64,000 nucleotides of DNA from Escherichia phage vB-Eco-KMB39, in sequence record OR539219.1; one strand, 5' to 3'. Below are positions 10,644 to 43,226 of this stretch, one piece after another. Below the pieces are notes generated by a model, which did no database searches, was not told the DNA's origin, and saw only the letters and a program-made list of their open reading frames with translations. The position numbers and the translations under genes were made by a program. Every line of letters starts with the position of its first letter. Position 1 is the first letter of the stretch.

Positions 10644-12062
10644 TTATGGATAGGTATAGATGATACCAGTTTCTAAAGCAGTTTTATGAATGATGTATCC
10701 ATTACGCGATTCTTGAACATCAACTTCTGGATAGTCTTTCATCATCTTCTGAAGAGTGTAACGATGCAAGTAGTACTTACTATCTGGATCGTCAGTTTTC
10801 CAATCTTTACCTTCTTCAGTCATTTTTTGGATTTCATCCATAACCCACCAACCGCACCAGATATAAGCTGAAGTACGATGTGGAAGAGGATGAACATAAG
10901 GCAATTCACCTTCTGGTTCCGGAGCAACTTTATCAGTTACCTGAACTTGACCAGTCGCTTTAACTGTTTTACTATCATAGTCAGTTGCTGTAACGACAGC
11001 AGTAACTTCAATAGTTTGGCTTCCAATAGATGAGGTATCAACAGTATATACGTTAGTTGACCCTTCTACAGGAGAAGAATCTTTCTTCCATGAATACGTA
11101 ATTTGTGCTTCTTCCGGAGCATCCGTAACATTAGCGGTAAATGTAGCCGAAGCATCTTGCTGAACATTAATAGAAGGAGGAGTCAATGTAACCTGTGGAT
11201 TCATTGTCTTCTTATTAACCGTTAATGATACTTCATTAGAAGTAACTGTTTTTGCGTCGTAATCCGTTGCTGTTACTTGGGCTATGCATTTAATTTTTTT
11301 AACTCCAGCCACAGTTGGAGTATAGTTAAATGTAGAGTTAGTTTCTCCATCAACTTGTGAATCATCTACATACCACTGATACGTGGCAGACGCTCCATCA
11401 GGTTGAGAAGCTAAGGCAGCAGTAAATTGAACCGGGGTTCCAATTACTCCAGCAGCAGGACTATCAGGAGTTACTGCCAAGGTAGTTGTCTGCGTCTTTT
11501 TATTAACAGTCAGTGACACTTCATTAGAAGTAACTTCCTTTGTATCATAATCTGCCGCGGTTACTTGAGCTACACACTTAATTGTTTTAACTCCGCTTGT
11601 GGAAGGAGTGTAATTAAATGTAGCAGAAGTTGCTTCGCCCACAGGAGAACCGTCAACGTACCATTGATATGTAGCAGTTGCGCCCGATGGCTGCGAAGCT
11701 AAAGCAGCAGTAAATTCAACAGCTGTTCCAATTACTCCTTCTGGAGGACTATTAGGAGTTACAGCTAAAGTAGTTGTCTGTGTCTTATTTTGAACTGTGA
11801 TAGTTGTAGTAGCTTCTGCTGTTTCAGCATCAGTATCTGGAACTGGGTTTGTTGCAACTACTTTAATAGTTTTTTGACCGGCAGGTCCTTTTAATACATA
11901 ACTAAAAGTTGCAGATGTTTCTTCCTGTGGAACATCATCTACAGTCCAAGCATATGTAATAGGTCCATCTCCAGTTTGACCACTGGGTGTAGCAGTAAAC
12001 TGCTGAGTCTGATCTATAACTCCAGTAGGTGTTTTAGGAGTTATATCAACTGTAAAAGCCAT
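10644..12062 (-). CDS. hoc: highly immunogenic outer capsid protein Hoc with four Ig-like domains
   Basis: 472 aa; N-terminal tandem Ig-like domains and conserved C-terminal capsid-binding region (...WCGWWVMDEIQKM...); terminator hairpin after stop. Confidence 0.85.
   Translation of the reverse strand: MAFTVDITPKTPTGVIDQTQQFTATPSGQTGDGPITYAWTVDDVPQEETSATFSYVLKGPAGQKTIKVVATNPVPDTDAETAEATTTITVQNKTQTTTLAVTPNSPPEGVIGTAVEFTAALASQPSGATATYQWYVDGSPVGEATSATFNYTPSTSGVKTIKCVAQVTAADYDTKEVTSNEVSLTVNKKTQTTTLAVTPDSPAAGVIGTPVQFTAALASQPDGASATYQWYVDDSQVDGETNSTFNYTPTVAGVKKIKCIAQVTATDYDAKTVTSNEVSLTVNKKTMNPQVTLTPPSINVQQDASATFTANVTDAPEEAQITYSWKKDSSPVEGSTNVYTVDTSSIGSQTIEVTAVVTATDYDSKTVKATGQVQVTDKVAPEPEGELPYVHPLPHRTSAYIWCGWWVMDEIQKMTEEGKDWKTDDPDSKYYLHRYTLQKMMKDYPEVDVQESRNGYIIHKTALETGIIYTYP
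11211..11786 (-). repeat. tandem duplication (2 x 288 bp) encoding two near-identical Ig-like domains within hoc
   Basis: Protein residues 93-188 and 189-284 are about 80% identical (KTQTTTLAVTP...SLTVNK twice); DNA copies visibly similar. Confidence 0.8.
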
Positions 12063-12071
12063 AAGTTATCC

Positions 12072-12752
12072 TTATTTTAATGTTACGAAAGAAGAGTTGC
12101 GTGTTTCACGAATTAAAACTGATCCGTCACGGTTAATGTAGTAAATTAAGCTAAATAAAGTTTGGTGTGCCGACGCGTGTTCAAAACTAGTTGGGTGAGA
12201 TTTCCAATCCGGAGTTTCAGCGATCCATTGATAAATCCACCAAGGAACCGTGCAAAATCCTGGATTTTTTCCAATCAGCTGAAGATTCGGACTAAAGTTT
12301 TCCGGAAGAGTAAATACAGACGGCTTTTCAGATTCAATAATCTCAGCTACAGCCTGTTCGAATTTTTCTTCAACAAAAGGAGTATCTTCAATCAAAACGT
12401 CAGTATTTTCGGGAATTTTATCCGTTTCTACTACTTCAATTTTAATGTCAGATTTAACCGGAGAATCAATCAGAAGTGCTGCTTCTGGATTGACTTCTTC
12501 ATCGTCATATTTTAACCCCTCTGCGGCATCAGCAGCATTGATTAAGTCTTTAATAGATAACCCATCAGTCTCTGGCATAGGTTCACTAGCGAGCTTCTGG
12601 AGGGCTTCTTCAATATCAATAACGATATTATCAAAAGATTTATTCTTTTTGACCTTTATACCAAACTGTTCAGCATATTCAGCTAATTTAGCTTTAGCTT
12701 CTTTATTATCATCAAGAGCCTTCAGCTCTGCAATATAATCTTTATCTATCAT
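12072..12752 (-). CDS. inh: inhibitor of prohead protease Inh
   Basis: 226 aa ORF immediately upstream of hoc; synteny with T4 inh. Confidence 0.65.
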   Translation of the reverse strand: MIDKDYIAELKALDDNKEAKAKLAEYAEQFGIKVKKNKSFDNIVIDIEEALQKLASEPMPETDGLSIKDLINAADAAEGLKYDDEEVNPEAALLIDSPVKSDIKIEVVETDKIPENTDVLIEDTPFVEEKFEQAVAEIIESEKPSVFTLPENFSPNLQLIGKNPGFCTVPWWIYQWIAETPDWKSHPTSFEHASAHQTLFSLIYYINRDGSVLIRETRNSSFVTLK

Positions 12753-12765
12753 AATATTTCCTCAG

Positions 12766-12773
12766 TATAAATA
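12766..12773 (+). promoter_or_regulatory. late promoter core TATAAATA (seg-like gene / uvsW)
   Basis: Exact match 28 bp upstream of ATG 12802. Confidence 0.55.
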
Positions 12774-12801
12774 TAGATATATTTATTACTCGGAAAATAG
12801 T

Positions 12802-13419
12802 ATGTACCACTTTGTATATGAAACAACAAATCTAATAAACGGTAAAAAGTATATAGGAAAACACTCTACTGATGACTTGAATGATGGTTACCTTGGTTCC
12901 GGTAAGGCAATTCAGCAGGCTATAAAGAAATATGGTGAAAACAATTTCTCTAGAACAATACTAAAAGAGTTTAAAACTTCCGAAGAAGCGTACATGTATG
13001 AAGAAGAAATTATAACTCCTGAAATAATAAAAAGCAAAAATTATTATAATATGAAACCTGGTGGAATTGGTGGAATTGTTATGACTACAGAGGTTATAGC
13101 AAAGATGAAAGAATCTTCCGCTAAGAGATTTGAAAACTCACCGGGCACGGTATTAGGTACAACTTGTTACACCAATGGAACTAAAAATATTTTTATTAAA
13201 CCTGGAGAACTTGTTCCAGAAGGATTTGTAAAAGGGATGGTTCATCCTAATAGAAAGTCCAGAAAAGGATGTAAAGTCAAACCGACTACCACAGGAACTT
13301 TTTGGGTCAATAATGGCGCAATAAATAAATTAATACAACCAGACGGTATTATTCCCGACGGATTTATTAAAGGTCGTCTCATGAAAAGAGATTCTAAAGG
13401 CAAATTTAGTAAGGCATAA
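12802..13419 (+). CDS. segE: GIY-YIG homing endonuclease (SegE-like)
   Basis: 205 aa; N-terminal GIY-YIG module YHFVYETTNLINGKKYIGKHS; sits between hoc/inh block and uvsW as segE does in T4. Confidence 0.65.
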   Translation: MYHFVYETTNLINGKKYIGKHSTDDLNDGYLGSGKAIQQAIKKYGENNFSRTILKEFKTSEEAYMYEEEIITPEIIKSKNYYNMKPGGIGGIVMTTEVIAKMKESSAKRFENSPGTVLGTTCYTNGTKNIFIKPGELVPEGFVKGMVHPNRKSRKGCKVKPTTTGTFWVNNGAINKLIQPDGIIPDGFIKGRLMKRDSKGKFSKA

Positions 13420-13421
13420 TT

Positions 13422-14930
13422 ATGGATATTAAAGTACATTTTCACGACTTCAGTCATGTACGCATCGATTGTGAAGAGAGCACGTTCCACGAATTAAGAG
13501 ATTTCTTTTCGTTTGAGGCAGATGGATATAGGTTTAATCCTCGCTTCAGATATGGCAACTGGGATGGACGAATCCGTCTTTTAGATTATAATCGTCTTCT
13601 TCCGTTCGGCTTAGTCGGGCAAATTAAAAAGTTCTGCGATAACTTTGGCTATAAAGCCTGGATTGACCCTCAAATTAATGAAAAAGAAGAATTATCAAGA
13701 AAAGATTTTGATGAATGGCTTTCTAAATTAGAAATCTATTCAGGAAATAAAAGAATTGAACCACACTGGTATCAAAAAGATGCAGTGTTCGAAGGATTAG
13801 TTAATCGTCGCAGAATTCTTAATCTTCCAACATCCGCAGGTAAATCTTTAATTCAAGCTTTGCTTGCACGTTATTATTTGGAAAATTATGAAGGTAAAAT
13901 TCTTATCATTGTTCCAACAACTGCTCTGACAACTCAGATGGCTGATGACTTTGTTGACTATCGTTTATTCAGTCATGCAATGATAAAGAAAATCGGCGGC
14001 GGAGCATCAAAAGATGATAAATATAAAAATGATGCACCAGTCGTCGTTGGTACATGGCAAACTGTAGTTAAACAACCGAAAGAATGGTTCTCACAGTTTG
14101 GAATGATGATGAATGATGAATGTCATCTTGCTACAGGAAAAAGTATTTCATCTATCATATCAGGATTAAATAACTGTATGTTTAAATTTGGTCTATCAGG
14201 TTCATTACGTGATGGCAAAGCCAATATCATGCAGTATGTTGGAATGTTTGGTGAAATATTTAAACCAGTAACGACTTCTAAATTAATGGAAGATGGACAA
14301 GTAACTGAGCTAAAAATTAATAGTATTTTTCTTCGCTATCCCGATGAGTTCACTACTAAATTAAAGGGAAAAACTTACCAAGAAGAAATAAAAATTATTA
14401 CTGGACTCAGTAAAAGAAATAAATGGATTGCTAAATTAGCTATTAAACTTGCACAAAAAGATGAAAACGCTTTTGTCATGTTTAAGCATGTATCACATGG
14501 TAAAGCTATTTTCGATTTAATTAAAAATGAATACGATAAAGTTTATTACGTATCAGGGGAAGTTGATACCGAAACACGCAACGTAATGAAAACCCTAGCT
14601 GAAAACGGTAAAGGAATAATTATAGTAGCTAGTTATGGTGTATTTTCTACTGGTATTTCAGTTAAAAATCTGCATCACGTTGTTTTAGCGCACGGTGTTA
14701 AATCAAAAATCATTGTATTACAAACAATCGGTCGTGTATTACGTAAGCATGGTTCTAAGACAATAGCAACAGTCTGGGATCTTATAGATGACGCGGGCGT
14801 AGTTTCTAAATCAAAAACATCTTCTAAAAAATACTCGCATTTAAACTATCTTTTAAAACATGGACTTGATCGTATTCAGCGTTATGCTGATGAAAAGTTT
14901 AATTATGTGATGAAAGAGGTTAAACTTTGA
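13422..14930 (+). CDS. uvsW: UvsW RNA-DNA / DNA helicase
   Basis: 502 aa; Walker A LPTSAGKS and helicase motifs; MDIKVHFHDFSHVRIDCEE... Confidence 0.9.
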   Translation: MDIKVHFHDFSHVRIDCEESTFHELRDFFSFEADGYRFNPRFRYGNWDGRIRLLDYNRLLPFGLVGQIKKFCDNFGYKAWIDPQINEKEELSRKDFDEWLSKLEIYSGNKRIEPHWYQKDAVFEGLVNRRRILNLPTSAGKSLIQALLARYYLENYEGKILIIVPTTALTTQMADDFVDYRLFSHAMIKKIGGGASKDDKYKNDAPVVVGTWQTVVKQPKEWFSQFGMMMNDECHLATGKSISSIISGLNNCMFKFGLSGSLRDGKANIMQYVGMFGEIFKPVTTSKLMEDGQVTELKINSIFLRYPDEFTTKLKGKTYQEEIKIITGLSKRNKWIAKLAIKLAQKDENAFVMFKHVSHGKAIFDLIKNEYDKVYYVSGEVDTETRNVMKTLAENGKGIIIVASYGVFSTGISVKNLHHVVLAHGVKSKIIVLQTIGRVLRKHGSKTIATVWDLIDDAGVVSKSKTSSKKYSHLNYLLKHGLDRIQRYADEKFNYVMKEVKL

Positions 14931-15619
14931 ATTATAAATTAATATATGATAATTTAATTAATAGAGCCCAGAATCGGGCTCGCCTTAATGGATACACTGA
15001 AACACATCATATAATTCCTAGATGTATGGGTGGTACAAATGATAAGTGTAATTTAGTAGAACTAACGGCTGAAGAACATTTTATAGCCCATAAACTTTTA
15101 GCTAAAATTCATCCAAACCATTACGGTATAATTAAAGCTGTTATATGTATGGGGATGAATTCAAATACTCATGAAAGACACGTCAATAAATCTTACGCAT
15201 GGGAACGTCGTAAAATGGCAGAACTTCAATCCGGCGAAGGTAATCCATTTTACGGAAAACACCATACGGAAGAACATAAACAATATATGTCAAAACTCAT
15301 GAAAAGTCGTCCAATTACATGGGGAAATAAAATTAGTAAAACTAAAAGAATGAACCCAACGAAATGGACTGAAGAAGCTAAAAGATTACATTCAATCAAT
15401 CAATCGGGTAAAAATAACGGCATGTATGGAAGGAAACATTCCGCTAAATCTATTCAGAAAATTAAAGATAACATGCCAGATAATTCAGGAGCTAATAACC
15501 CAGCTGCTAAACCTATAGAAGTAAATGGTGTTAAGTATAAATGTATGAAAGATGCTTCTAAAGCTACTGGATTATCAATGTACAAACTAAGAATACTTAG
15601 AAAAACAGTTAATTTATAA
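14927..15619 (+). CDS. HNH homing endonuclease (Mob-like), TTG-initiated
   Basis: 230 aa; N-terminus near-identical to the mobE product at 42495-43226 (MNY.IY.DLI.RAQ...ETHHI.P.CMGG); starts at TTG 14927 overlapping uvsW TGA; GAGG 7 nt upstream. Confidence 0.75.
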   Translation: MNYKLIYDNLINRAQNRARLNGYTETHHIIPRCMGGTNDKCNLVELTAEEHFIAHKLLAKIHPNHYGIIKAVICMGMNSNTHERHVNKSYAWERRKMAELQSGEGNPFYGKHHTEEHKQYMSKLMKSRPITWGNKISKTKRMNPTKWTEEAKRLHSINQSGKNNGMYGRKHSAKSIQKIKDNMPDNSGANNPAAKPIEVNGVKYKCMKDASKATGLSMYKLRILRKTVNL

Positions 15620-15631
15620 GGGCTTCGGCCC
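15620..15631 (+). terminator. UUCG hairpin between Mob-like gene and downstream small ORF
   Basis: GGGC-TTCG-GCCC immediately before GGAG RBS; may be RNA stabiliser rather than terminator. Confidence 0.4.
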
Positions 15632-15632
15632 T

Positions 15633-15875
15633 TTGGAGAAAAAGATGTTACTAGAATTTAAACAATTTCTTTATGAAGCTTCTATTGATGAATTTATGGG
15701 TAAAATTGCCTCTTGTCAAACATTAGAAGGTTTAGAAGAACTTGAAGCTTATTATAAGAAAAGAGTTAAAGAAACTGAATTAAAAGATACTGATGACATC
15801 TCTGTGAGAGATGCTTTGGCAGGAAAAAGAGCTGAATTAGAAGATTCAGATGATGAAGTAGAAGAAAGCTTTTAA
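15633..15875 (+). CDS. small acidic protein (UvsW.1-like)
   Basis: 80 aa ORF with GGAG RBS after UUCG hairpin; position downstream of uvsW. Confidence 0.55.
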   Translation: MEKKMLLEFKQFLYEASIDEFMGKIASCQTLEGLEELEAYYKKRVKETELKDTDDISVRDALAGKRAELEDSDDEVEESF

Positions 15876-15930
15876 ATTAAAAAAGGCCCAACCAAAAAGG
15901 AAGGGCCAAAACTATAGACTAAAGGTCACA

Positions 15931-16098
15931 CTATAGCAAAAGTTGTGTTTCATTTAATTGTTCTTCCGAACTTTCTGAAACTGGTAGTTCTTTAATGTAA
16001 TTATAACAAGGCCCAGGATGTACAGGACCTTTGTCTGTTTCAACAACCAATGCAGAATCGATTGGAGTTTTACAGACAACACAAATCTTATCTGACAT
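15931..16098 (-). CDS. hypothetical small protein (uvsY.-2-like), 55 aa
   Basis: Hand-translated: MSDKICVVCKTPIDSALVVETDKGPVHPGPCYNY...; GAGGAG RBS; not in ORF track because under 60 aa. Confidence 0.45.
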   Translation of the reverse strand: MSDKICVVCKTPIDSALVVETDKGPVHPGPCYNYIKELPVSESSEEQLNETQLLL

Positions 16099-16126
16099 GA
16101 TTGTCTCCTCTAAATTATATATCTAT

Positions 16127-16351
16127 TTATATAACTCTCATATGCATATCAATACCCATATCTTTAGAATAAAAATATTCATCAAGATATCCAGCAAATT
16201 TTCCTTTAATATAAAGGACATCTTCACCACACGGGTGGTCGGCCAGGATACGAATATCCTGACGCTTAAGATTATACTTTTTCATTAAGAATTGAATCTC
16301 AGTTTCAAATTCTTCTTCATAATTAAAAGCATCATCAATGCTATATCTCAT
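16127..16351 (-). CDS. hypothetical protein (uvsY.-1-like)
   Basis: 74 aa; start overlaps uvsY stop. Confidence 0.55.
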   Translation of the reverse strand: MRYSIDDAFNYEEEFETEIQFLMKKYNLKRQDIRILADHPCGEDVLYIKGKFAGYLDEYFYSKDMGIDMHMRVI

Positions 16352-41316: not shown

Positions 41317-42495
41317 TTAAAAGTATTTTTTAAAACTCATCATAACTTTATCATCAACATCATTATCAATCTGTGCAACAAGATAAGATGACAGTTCTAC
41401 TTCTTGCGGCGCGGATTGAACATTATCAGAATTAAGGTATTCACGAATCCAAGGATATGGATGTTTAACCGGAGCATCGGTAATTGGGCATGGAAGACCA
41501 CACTGTTTCATACGAGATACAGTTAAGTAATCAATAAAGCTCCACATGCTATTTGTATTTAATCCAGGAACATCGCCATCTTTAAATAAATGAACTGCCC
41601 AATCTTTTTCTTGGCGGTTAACTTCCATGAAAATATCAACTGCTTCTTGTTCACACTCTTTGGCAATTTTAACCCATTCATCACCATCAGTGCCAAGTTG
41701 AAGTTGACGAATAATATACTGGGTGCCTTTAAGGTGGAGTTGTTCGTCTCGAGCAATGAATTTCATAATCTTCGCATTACCTTCCATGATTTCCATATTT
41801 TTATGGAAGTTGAAAGTACATGCAAAGGATACATAAAAACGAATAGCTTCCAGGGCATTGATAACATGAAGGCAGAGATAAAGCGACTTCATCAATGCAT
41901 ATTTACATTCTTCCACATGCATAAGACTATTTGAATATGCATCTAAATCATATTCATTTTCGGAAAAACATTTAAAAATTTCTTTTGCATTTTCCCATTC
42001 GCGCGTCTTAACCAGAACATCATCATAATAACGACCAATAGATTCAGCACGTTTCATGATAGCTTTATCTAATACAATCTCATCAAATACCTTTGACGGA
42101 TCAGTATAAAGATTTCGCATAATATGAGTGTATGAACGACTGTGAATAGTTTCACTAAAAGTCCATGTAGCAACCCATGTATCAAGACTTGGGTCTGAAA
42201 TTAACGACATAAGTACAGCAGACGGTGCACGACCCTGAATGCTATCTAGAAGTGATTGATACTTCAGGTTATTAGTAAAAATATCTTGCTGATATTGAGG
42301 AAGCTTGTTAAATTGCGCAGCATCCATCATTAAGTTTACTTCTTCAGGACGCCAGAAAAATGACAACTGCTTTTCGGTTAAATCTTCAAAAACTTTATGA
42401 CGTTGAATATCGTAACGCGCAATACCAAGACCTGAACCGAAGAACATAGGTTCTTTTAAAACATCAACTGGATTTGTATTAAAAACTGTAGACAT
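41317..42495 (-). CDS. nrdB: ribonucleotide reductase small subunit, uninterrupted
   Basis: 392 aa from ATG 42495 (MSTVFNTNP...); continuous reading frame; start overlaps mobE stop (TAATG). Confidence 0.9.
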   Translation of the reverse strand: MSTVFNTNPVDVLKEPMFFGSGLGIARYDIQRHKVFEDLTEKQLSFFWRPEEVNLMMDAAQFNKLPQYQQDIFTNNLKYQSLLDSIQGRAPSAVLMSLISDPSLDTWVATWTFSETIHSRSYTHIMRNLYTDPSKVFDEIVLDKAIMKRAESIGRYYDDVLVKTREWENAKEIFKCFSENEYDLDAYSNSLMHVEECKYALMKSLYLCLHVINALEAIRFYVSFACTFNFHKNMEIMEGNAKIMKFIARDEQLHLKGTQYIIRQLQLGTDGDEWVKIAKECEQEAVDIFMEVNRQEKDWAVHLFKDGDVPGLNTNSMWSFIDYLTVSRMKQCGLPCPITDAPVKHPYPWIREYLNSDNVQSAPQEVELSSYLVAQIDNDVDDKVMMSFKKYF

Positions 42496-43226
42496 TAATT
42501 TTTCCTCTTTAAAATTCTGCCGCGTTTCCAACCTGGCGGTATAATATCATCTTTACCTATAAGCGTGCATTCACTTCCATTATTAATCCATTTCTTACCG
42601 CGGATTCCTTTATAATCTCTTGGTTGTATTTTGTCAAACTTTGCATCAAGTTGATATGCCCATCGAAATCCATAGGCATATTGAAATTTACCCTCAGCAC
42701 AATATTTGATATTTGACCCGTTTCCATTAACTGACCTGGACGCTGCGGCAATAGAGTGAAAGGTTTCTATGAAATCCCCATCTAATGAGAATTTATGTAT
42801 TTCGATAGATGGGCATGCATACCTATTCACGTTTGATACATGTTGTTTAGTTTCGTTTTTATGATGCTTGCCTAACATTCCTCTAGGATGAGGATTATTT
42901 TTCCAATATTTCTTAAAGAAATCAGAATTAGCTTTAGCAAATAATTTTCTGTGCAAGCTATACAATCTGTTATTAATTCTATTACCAGCTTTATCTGTTG
43001 CCATTAACGTTAACGCAGAGGCAAGACCAAAATGGCCTTCATTTATCTTGCATAGTAATAGATGCGCTATAAAATGTTCTCTAGCTGTTAATTCAACTAA
43101 ATTTTCTTTATCATCAGAACCTCCCATGCATTTAGGGACTATATGATGTGTCTCTTTATACTCGGATAAATGTTCCCGAGCCTGAGCTCGGGAAATTAGG
43201 TCATTATAGATTTTTTGATAATTCAT
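42495..43226 (-). CDS. mobE: HNH homing endonuclease MobE
   Basis: 243 aa; HNH core ETHHIVPKCMGGSDDKENLVELTAREH; located between nrdA and nrdB as T4 mobE. Confidence 0.75.
   Translation of the reverse strand: MNYQKIYNDLISRAQAREHLSEYKETHHIVPKCMGGSDDKENLVELTAREHFIAHLLLCKINEGHFGLASALTLMATDKAGNRINNRLYSLHRKLFAKANSDFFKKYWKNNPHPRGMLGKHHKNETKQHVSNVNRYACPSIEIHKFSLDGDFIETFHSIAAASRSVNGNGSNIKYCAEGKFQYAYGFRWAYQLDAKFDKIQPRDYKGIRGKKWINNGSECTLIGKDDIIPPGWKRGRILKRKN

Follow-up and report, generated by a model that had tools for sequence, protein, structure and literature searches.

The uvsW locus and the HNH gene

The stretch of DNA analysed here, referred to as the window, comprises 64,000 nucleotides (nt) of Escherichia phage vB-Eco-KMB39 (sequence record OR539219.1). 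It contains the helicase gene uvsW and, directly downstream of it, an open reading frame (ORF) that probably encodes a free-standing homing endonuclease of the Mob family and is the main subject of this work. The uvsW gene (13422 to 14930, + strand) encodes a protein of 502 amino acids (aa), with the Pfam domains UvsW_N, ResIII, DEAD and Helicase_C. The ORF that follows (14927 to 15619, + strand), called here the HNH gene, starts with TTG, ends with TAA and encodes 230 aa. The next gene is uvsW.1 (15645 to 15875, + strand, 76 aa; Pfam UvsW-1, E = 1.5e-30), which is annotated in PST and RB51, and the HNH gene therefore sits precisely on the boundary between uvsW and uvsW.1. Upstream of uvsW is segE (12802 to 13419, + strand, 205 aa), a free-standing homing endonuclease gene of the GIY-YIG type. 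An earlier note on this DNA, made without database searches, described uvsW as flanked by two homing endonuclease genes. This description holds, with SegE on the upstream side and, on the downstream side, a Mob-family HNH protein recognised by its match to PHROG 655 and its HNH motif.

The HNH gene has the same orientation as its neighbours, lies between conserved genes, and is outside any intron or intein, as is characteristic of a free-standing Mob gene. Its product matches PHROG 655 (‘homing endonuclease’) with E = 4e-59. MobE belongs to PHROG 655 too, and in the window is encoded between nrdA and nrdB (42495 to 43226, - strand), with an ATG that overlaps the nrdA stop. The two window proteins are 46% identical over 134 aa (E = 3e-34), and the earlier suggestion that they are paralogues is upheld. 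The first 40 residues had also been described as near-identical, which is too strong: the alignment gives 25 identities in 40 (62%). The C-terminal halves differ, with two NUMOD3 motifs in the HNH protein (E = 7e-14) and NUMOD1 in MobE. The C-terminal segment of the HNH protein aligns weakly to the DNA-binding domain of I-TevI (PDB 1i3j, E = 0.006; Pfam I-TevI_DNA-bd, E = 0.029), and the DNA of the gene has short matches to T4 mobB and RB3 mobD.

The motif residues are His27/His28, Asn42 and His51, and the pattern E-T-H27-H28-I-I-P...N42...H51 is invariant in 13 homologues. In a profile made from these 13 sequences, the HH...N...H columns, which are catalytic and metal-binding in HNH enzymes, align with those of the solved HNH domains of McrA (6ghc), Cas8f-HNH and a group II intron maturase, with E values from 3e-4 to 9e-3. 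The Pfam HNH model is matched at E <= 0.01 by 10 of the 13, the best value being 2.8e-4. The ratio of nonsynonymous to synonymous substitution (dN/dS) is between 0.05 and 0.30, with synonymous sites near saturation between genera (proportion of synonymous differences, pS, 0.6–0.78), and the gene evolves under purifying selection. The 230-aa ORF is intact in 15 of the 16 copies that were retrieved in full. In the BF15 copy, a 4-nt deletion in a ATCAATCAATCG repeat about 476 nt into the ORF shifts the frame and cuts the ORF to 195 aa, which represents either a decaying copy or a sequencing error.

The gene is found in 48 of the 501 records that match the flanking sequences in the uvsW 3′ end and uvsW.1 (approximately 10% of Tequatrovirus), and these include T6 and PST. 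In the remaining flank-matching records, including T4, T2, RB51 and wV7, uvsW and uvsW.1 are contiguous. The statement in the earlier note that T4 has no HNH gene after uvsW is thus correct, and T2 is the same. Further counts of presence at this site gave 9/64 and 13/183 records. The window between 12000 and 16400 is 97–98% identical to Pu-Krd-SF6, AV121, PST, T6, ACG-C40 and others. Records for PST, T6 and Pu-Krd-SF6 annotate a 693-nt ‘homing endonuclease’ coding sequence (CDS) that has a 4-nt overlap with the uvsW stop, corresponding to the TTG start, and TTG is used in most of the annotated copies inspected. Because the gene is already carried, and annotated with TTG, in T6, PST and others, the locus is not new, and the HNH gene is an ordinary but neatly built member of a well-known class.

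Dhakavirus, Gaprivervirus and a group of Klebsiella phages have diverged orthologues at this site. The corresponding junction of Yersinia phage vB_YenM_P8 (588–1373) has a longer Mob-type gene of 261 aa, with an unrelated C-terminal half that nevertheless ends in a copy of the uvsW-type tail, IKQVEI*. More than one homing endonuclease gene (HEG) appears to have landed at the uvsW|uvsW.1 junction.

The T4 reference sequence differs at this junction from other records. NC_000866 (5180–5200) reads TTTAATAAGCTTCGG, while resequenced T4 (OL964745, approximately 815–835) and all relatives read TTTATAAGGGCTTCGG. The former is an old sequence error, as a result of which a fused UvsW of 587 aa is annotated, and the true uvsW stop and the hairpin after it are masked.

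Start codon, insertion anatomy and sequence divergence

As proposed in the earlier note, the TTG start of the HNH gene (14927–14929) overlaps the uvsW stop codon TGA (14928–14930), giving the sequence TTGA at 14927 to 14930, and is preceded by GAGG with a 7-nt spacer. This Shine-Dalgarno (SD) sequence (14916 to 14919, + strand) comes from recoded uvsW codons, GAG GTT (Glu-Val), where phages without the HNH gene have ACA GTT (Thr-Val). There is a TAA in the HNH frame at 14921, two codons before the TTG, and therefore no start is possible further upstream. An in-frame ATG that might have been overlooked was looked for and none was found: the next one is codon 34 (15026), which is past the catalytic His27-His28. 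Sequence comparison strongly supports TTG as the sole credible start. The overlap is of the NUGA type, in which the start overlaps the upstream stop and an SD lies 4–9 nt away, within the upstream ORF.

The arrangement GAGG-N7-TTG overlapping TGA is kept in all 48 carrier records. Over 14890–14965, 32 of the 48 are identical and the other 16 vary only at 14894, 14900 (in one record) or 14947, all of which are outside the SD and start codon. More informative are the orthologues at the same junction in other genera, which have approximately 70% nucleotide identity and 57–69% amino acid identity. All start at the aligned codon, and the overlap (T/A)TGA is present in five lineages, including that of the window. 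In Dhakavirus UP19 and ESCO10 the start is TTG in TTGA with the SD GAGG-N7, and in Gaprivervirus SP18 and pEC-M719-6WT.2 it is TTG in TTGA with AGGTGG-N4. Klebsiella phage Roth16 has ATG in ATGA and no SD; in Yersinia phage P8, whose 261-aa Mob-type gene has the other C-terminus, there is ATG in ATGA with an SD that is weak or absent. Mob-family homologues from other contexts have an ATG at the aligned Met (MNY.../MDY...). The 33 codons before the first internal ATG hold the invariant catalytic His-His.

Three records, namely SP18 (2142–2837), pEC-M719-6WT.2 (2187–2882) and W143 (938–1630), are annotated from an internal ATG at codon 33 or 34. These annotations lose the N-terminal 32–33 residues, including the His-His pair, and the TTG/stop overlap is present in all three sequences.

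The start codon shares its first base with the last sense codon of uvsW, CTT (Leu) or ATT (Ile), where it is the third position. A change from T to A at this position would be silent in uvsW and would make an ATG, and thus TTG has persisted one silent step away from ATG. The UUG in the replacement tail is kept across genera whose synonymous sites are saturated. Initiation at UUG in E. coli is several-fold poorer than at AUG. In a small sample, in which two of the three TTG lineages are sisters, the persistence of TTG suggests but does not prove that a weak start is favoured. The lineages with ATG have a weak or absent SD and those with TTG a good one, which is consistent with weak initiation being selected by either route. 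All free-standing endonuclease genes of T4 start with AUG, except mobA, which starts with GUG (PMC2988022), and UUG is therefore unusual for the class.

In alleles without the HNH gene (resequenced T4, T2, LH2 and PP01), uvsW ends GTA ATG AAA ACA GTT AAT TTA TAA, followed by GGGCTTCGGCCC. In the window, it is the HNH ORF that ends AGA AAA ACA GTT AAT TTA TAA, again followed by GGGCTTCGGCCC. The native uvsW tail AAA ACA GTT AAT TTA TAA, encoding KTVNL*, now forms the C-terminus and stop of the HNH gene (15602 to 15619, + strand), and is identical to the sequence in phages without the gene. The end of uvsW in the window is a recoded version, ATG AAA GAG GTT AAA CTT TGA (KEVKL*), and both the GAGG and the TTG come from this version. 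In net terms 689 nt are inserted, and junctions lacking the gene are exactly contiguous.

The same duplication of the uvsW tail is seen in other genera. The uvsW tail and the C-terminus of the endonuclease gene are, respectively, IKQVEI* and IKQVEI* in SP18, MKEVQI* and MKQVDL* in UP19, MKTVNL* and RNL* in Roth16, and VKHVEL* and IKQVEI* in P8. A repeat finder independently detected these as direct repeats spaced by 692 nt, both in SP18 (22 nt, 95% identity) and in UP19 (24 nt, 75%). The junction without the gene is the exact product expected from recombination between the repeats, such that the SP18 repeats would give the VR7 sequence. Some genera have the uvsW.1 start within the uvsW stop (TAATG or ATGA); there, the SD for uvsW.1 is in the native tail as well, and the duplication thus keeps the signals for translating each of the two neighbours. 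A GGGC-UUCG-GCCC hairpin (15620 to 15631, + strand; folding free energy, dG, -9.3 kcal/mol) lies after the HNH stop and before the SD of uvsW.1. It also follows uvsW in phages without the HNH gene and is therefore part of the phage backbone and not of the mobile gene. The insertion is seamless, in that this hairpin and the ribosome binding site of uvsW.1 are untouched. The tail-duplication design, seen in at least four genera, is a new anatomy from the present analysis, as is the foreign block at the 3′ end of uvsW described below.

The uvsW sequence next to the insertion was examined by an alignment of six Tequatrovirus alleles with the HNH gene and three without it. All 37 fixed differences between the two groups within uvsW are in the last ~210 alignment columns, with the densest part at 14799–14840. 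When the window is compared with T2, 45 of the final 150 nt of uvsW are mismatched and 13 of the 420 nt before them, while uvsW.1 has 4 mismatches in 228 sites. Identity to T2 by distance from the uvsW stop is 99% at -300 to -150, 53% at -150 to -90, and 81% at -90 to 0, so that the left flank of about 150 nt is approximately 70% identical overall. In the Klebsiella phages, Roth16 (with the gene) and Roth34 (without it) show a similar one-sided block, with 30 versus 8 mismatches and 1 in 228 in the right flank. Thus, in both Tequatrovirus and Klebsiella phages, the gene is accompanied by about 150 nt of foreign sequence in the 3′ part of uvsW, and the right flank is native. The block (14790 to 14930, + strand) is a candidate target and co-conversion zone for the endonuclease. 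No donor was identified for it among the lineages sampled; the part at -150 to -90 is only 53–62% identical to all of them except LH2.

Phage LH2, which lacks the HNH gene, has the HNH-type haplotype at -150 to -90, with 98% identity to the window, but is of the T4 type at -90 to 0, with 100% identity to T2. Either natural recombination or loss of the HEG would account for this, the crossover being close to 14840 in the window.

Expression and interpretation

A T4-type late promoter consensus, TATAAATA, is found upstream of segE (12766 to 12773, + strand). It is the only exact + strand match between 7721 and 17880, and in phages that lack segE the same putative promoter is directly before uvsW. 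An internal late promoter for the HNH gene was considered and rejected, there being no TATAAATA inside uvsW or the HNH gene. Matches to sigma-70-like promoters inside these two genes were no more frequent than in shuffled sequences (11 compared with 15.1 +/- 4.7).

Two RNA hairpins are predicted near the start of the HNH gene. One is a possible AU-rich hairpin of 11 bp (14894 to 14928, + strand), in which 14894–14904 pairs with 14918–14928, with a dG of -6.3 kcal/mol (z score -2.9; 2 of 200 shuffles as good), and no equivalent pairing is predicted in the T4 allele, which lacks the gene. Its formation would make part of the SD, the spacer and the TT of the TTG inaccessible, and could mask the SD and start until a ribosome translating uvsW opened it. 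The other is a GC-rich hairpin, GAGCCC-AGAAUC-GGGCUC, in codons 13–18 (14964 to 14981, + strand; dG -12 kcal/mol, z score -3.2), which is the strongest 28-nt fold of the whole HNH ORF. The strongest fold of the ORF is at codons ~9–18 in 7 of 8 Mob-family genes tested, although the stems differ and are out of register. An early hairpin at codons ~9–13 was found in SP18, pEC-M719, Roth16, UP19, ESCO10 and the mobE of the window, but not in P8, and an 11-bp stem is seen at codon 13 in three homologues that are more distant. In the homologue sequences the early hairpins are at ~2173–2192 (L114), ~2173–2190 (L115, which is SP18), ~624–641 (L119) and ~2539–2564 (L013, L014 and L016).

In mobE, the hairpin CCCGAGC-UCAG-GCUCGGG (43172–43195, - strand) is an internal terminator in a position equivalent to that of the 14964–14981 hairpin, and, of all these hairpins, only that of T4 mobE is documented, as a weak terminator (PMC2988022, PMC2790892). 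RNAalifold applied to eight Mob-family 5′ regions gave no more than a weak stem, rich in AU, across the start codon (-3.3 kcal/mol), with no real covariation. The GC-rich hairpins escaped it, being out of register from one lineage to another, and were therefore scored gene by gene. A search of 12500–16200 against Rfam gave no credible RNA family, the sole match being to a miRNA model at E = 0.55. For T4 mobE, whose start overlaps the nrdA stop (UAAUGA), low expression by termination-reinitiation has been proposed (PMC2988022). Low expression of the HNH gene through its weak start codon and coupling, as suggested earlier, is a reasonable proposal and would match this.

We therefore consider it probable, from sequence comparison, that 14927–15619 is a free-standing, MobE-like HNH homing endonuclease gene that is expressed late and weakly by translational coupling. 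The gene would have no promoter of its own, and would be carried on a late transcript from TATAAATA at 12766 together with segE, uvsW and uvsW.1. The UUG at 14927 would be used mainly by ribosomes terminating on uvsW, with reinitiation aided by the GAGG at 7 nt, and little HNH protein would be made relative to UvsW. In a mixed infection, the enzyme would nick or cut the uvsW 3′ region of phages without the gene, such as T4 and T2, and in the ensuing repair by recombination the recipient would acquire the gene together with the ~150 nt next to it. The different sequence of this block would spare the genome of the carrier.

The closest known system is T4 MobE, which shares with the HNH gene its N-terminal HNH homology, its PHROG family, the lack of its own promoter and a start-on-stop overlap with an upstream gene of an essential pathway, in the form UAAUGA in T4 mobE (PMC2988022) and UUGA here. 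The two also share a strong early GC hairpin, in codons 11–18, and a polymorphic block within ~150 nt in a neighbouring conserved gene. The nick made by MobE in the neighbouring nrdB is about 120 nt inside that gene (nt 122–126), with co-conversion and protective polymorphisms (PMC2790892), and the divergence at the uvsW 3′ end appears to match this documented pattern. In contrast to mobE, the HNH gene has UUG rather than AUG and has an SD, its hairpin is not followed by a U-tract, and its C-terminal half has two NUMOD3 motifs and an I-TevI-like segment rather than NUMOD1. Its linked block is in the upstream gene, while that of MobE is in the downstream one, and its ORF borrows its last codons and stop from the tail of the host gene. 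Similarities are also seen to the modular architecture of I-HmuI and I-TevI, in which a nuclease domain is combined with NUMOD or helix-turn-helix modules for DNA binding. The HNH protein likewise has an N-terminal catalytic cartridge, then NUMOD3 repeats and, at the C-terminus, a segment like the I-TevI DNA-binding domain (the matches here being weak), although the HNH gene is free-standing and not encoded in an intron.

Several observations weigh against this interpretation. The HNH protein alone misses the gathering threshold of Pfam HNH (PF01844), scoring 16.2 against 21.4 bits; the MobE of the window is likewise under the cutoff, and a short HNH motif is typical of this divergent phage subgroup. 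The Tequatrovirus copies are 96–100% identical, and so the invariance of TTG among them says little, while the sample across genera is small, with three TTG lineages (two of them sisters) and two ATG lineages. The hairpin over the ribosome binding site is weak, at -6.3 kcal/mol, and has no support from covariation. The absence of a U-tract after the 14964–14981 hairpin makes MobE-like termination doubtful, although this absence would make sense because uvsW.1 is downstream and has no obvious promoter. SP18 compared with VR7 (both Gaprivervirus) shows no HNH-linked divergence, so that the block is not present everywhere and may record a single past transfer instead of immunity of the target. 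The frameshifting deletion in BF15 implies that some copies may be decaying. Full-text literature searches also gave no description of an endonuclease gene between uvsW and uvsW.1.

Some of these observations would also fit with the gene being a stranded or domesticated relic, which is no longer mobile and is kept only because its removal would harm the uvsW tail or the expression of uvsW.1. The divergence block would then be the footprint of a single old recombination event, as the lack of a linked block in SP18 versus VR7, the frameshift in BF15, and the partial HNH-type block in LH2 (by which block and gene are separable) might suggest; nor has the activity of MobE itself ever been shown in vitro (PMC2790892). 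We regard this as unlikely. The low dN/dS and invariant catalytic residues speak against it, as does the patchy occurrence at the same site in at least four genera, with flanks of local type, which needs repeated transfer. The direct repeats flanking the gene would moreover permit its clean deletion, yet it persists. The same repeats could be used to argue that the HNH-bearing state is ancestral and that a deletion between the two copies of the tail removed the gene from T4-type genomes, which would regenerate the HNH-less junction exactly; the patchy distribution would then be due to loss and not to invasion. We hold this to be quite improbable, because the change from 99% identity to T2 to approximately 70% in the ~150 nt of the left flank (53% at -150 to -90) is the signature of an import together with the gene, and the carriers are scattered and make up only about 10% of records. 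In any case, loss and gain are compatible with each other, and the question concerns the history of the gene and not its working.

A further possibility is that the uvsW/uvsW.1 split is itself the scar of an ancient insertion by this HEG family, making uvsW a case of ‘genes-in-pieces’ like Aeh1 nrdA and T4 39/60. The duplicated tail would then be a remnant, and the junctions without a HEG (ATGA or TAATG) would be clean excisions between repeats. There is some resemblance to the mobE of Aeh1 in nrdA and to T4 mobA and gene 60: here too a Mob-type gene lies between ORFs long taken as one, T4 ‘UvsW’ having been annotated as 587 aa, and the insertion keeps both neighbours' expression, as in Aeh1 mobE and the mobA cassette. 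Unlike these cases, however, every phage examined has uvsW and uvsW.1 as distinct ORFs, whether or not it has the HEG. A fused UvsW-UvsW.1 was looked for in 75 clusters of UvsW.1 homologues and found in none, all being stand-alone proteins of 52–96 aa. Nothing thus points to the HEG as the cause of the split, and the idea is unlikely after this search; we give the scar explanation little credence. In a milder form of the idea, to which we likewise give little weight, the cassette as a whole, consisting of a recoded tail with an SD and a weak start, the HEG and the native tail, would be an evolved portable design, by which an endonuclease gene could occupy a stop/start junction with both neighbours unchanged and could exit without a trace.

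The two remaining alternatives concern the product. It could start at the internal ATG (codon 34, 15026), giving a protein of 197 aa without the His-His pair, which would be a DNA-binding remnant for which the TTG was irrelevant. This start was picked by the annotators of W143 and SP18, and ATG is far commoner as a start codon. It is very unlikely to be the true start, because there is no SD-like sequence before 15026, and the 33 codons upstream are open in every copy and conserved as protein across genera, including the invariant E-x-H-H-I-x-P. In addition, Roth16 and P8 have ATG at the position of the TTG, and TTG is used in most of the other annotated records inspected, among them T6, PST and Pu-Krd-SF6. 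Finally, UvsW and HNH could be made as a single protein by programmed frameshifting, given that the two ORFs overlap and that HNH is read in the -1 frame with respect to uvsW. The TAA at 14921 confines such a shift to the last two codons of uvsW (14924–14930), where AAA CTT TGA contains no slippery heptamer; the +1 frame stops after three codons, and the overlap sequences differ between genera. With stops in both alternative frames and no slippery site, a fusion by this route is effectively refuted and has a negligible chance of being correct.

If the HNH gene is, as we think probable, an active endonuclease gene of the MobE type, the classical T-even set gains a Mob-type endonuclease carried by T6, an enzyme whose predicted target zone is the final ~150 nt of uvsW. 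For annotation, TTG is the right start, and the records of SP18, pEC-M719 and W143 drop the catalytic motif by starting from an internal ATG. The seamless design offers a compact system for studying how selfish nucleases limit their own expression without harming their neighbours. The current understanding of homing endonucleases is unchanged; what is added here, from sequence, is comparative support for the position of the start, the tail-duplication design and a predicted target and co-conversion zone.

The upstream gene segE and other features

The product of segE is identical to T4 SegE at 202 of 205 aa and matches Pfam SegE_GIY-YIG with 37.6 bits (cutoff 25). A gap of 2 bp between this gene and uvsW had been noticed earlier, and is indeed present between the end of the TAA at 13419 and the ATG at 13422. 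Both the gap and the position between inh and uvsW are as in T4, where SegE is a characterised homing endonuclease with inh/uvsW as its insertion site (PMC2988022, PMC2330249). The identity, position and gap are all shared with T4 and there is no notable difference, making this a textbook arrangement.

The 5′ end of uvsW contains a haplotype block linked to segE (13422 to 13620, + strand), as seen from the allele alignment. Alleles without segE (G8, ZN18, L086, L087) have 28–30 differences from the window in uvsW alignment columns 1–100 and 12–15 in the next 100, whereas alleles with segE (T4, PST, T6, SF6) have 0–1 and 2–5 respectively. This is the region where SegE acts (PMC2988022, PMC2330249), and the block therefore provides an internal control for the divergence analysis, which recovers a known region of SegE action. 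The N-terminus of UvsW is MDIKV (502 aa) in alleles with segE and MTDIKV (503 aa) in those without, and this one-codon difference (in the region 13422–13424) is inside the segE-linked block.

Genomes with both segE and the HNH gene account for 31 records and those with the HNH gene alone for 17, and the two elements are therefore separable. By approximate counts, segE occurs with the HNH gene more often than expected for independence, being present in ~31 of 48 records with the HNH gene and in roughly 125 of ~453 without it. This could be a result of phylogeny or of co-mobilisation, the genes being 1.5 kb apart.

Scans of IMG/VR detected no more than two close copies of the HNH gene, along with 14 uvsW.1 loci, and GenBank phages were far more informative. 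Elsewhere in the window, nrdB (41317–42531, - strand) is a single uninterrupted ORF. T4 nrdB has a group I intron carrying I-TevIII, and this phage would thus have mobE without the intron that MobE mobilises in T4. The hoc gene (10644–12062, - strand) encodes 472 aa, compared with 376 aa in T4 (a CDS of 1131 nt). Its translation contains an additional repeat of the Ig-like module, and the T6 RefSeq record splits hoc into two CDS.

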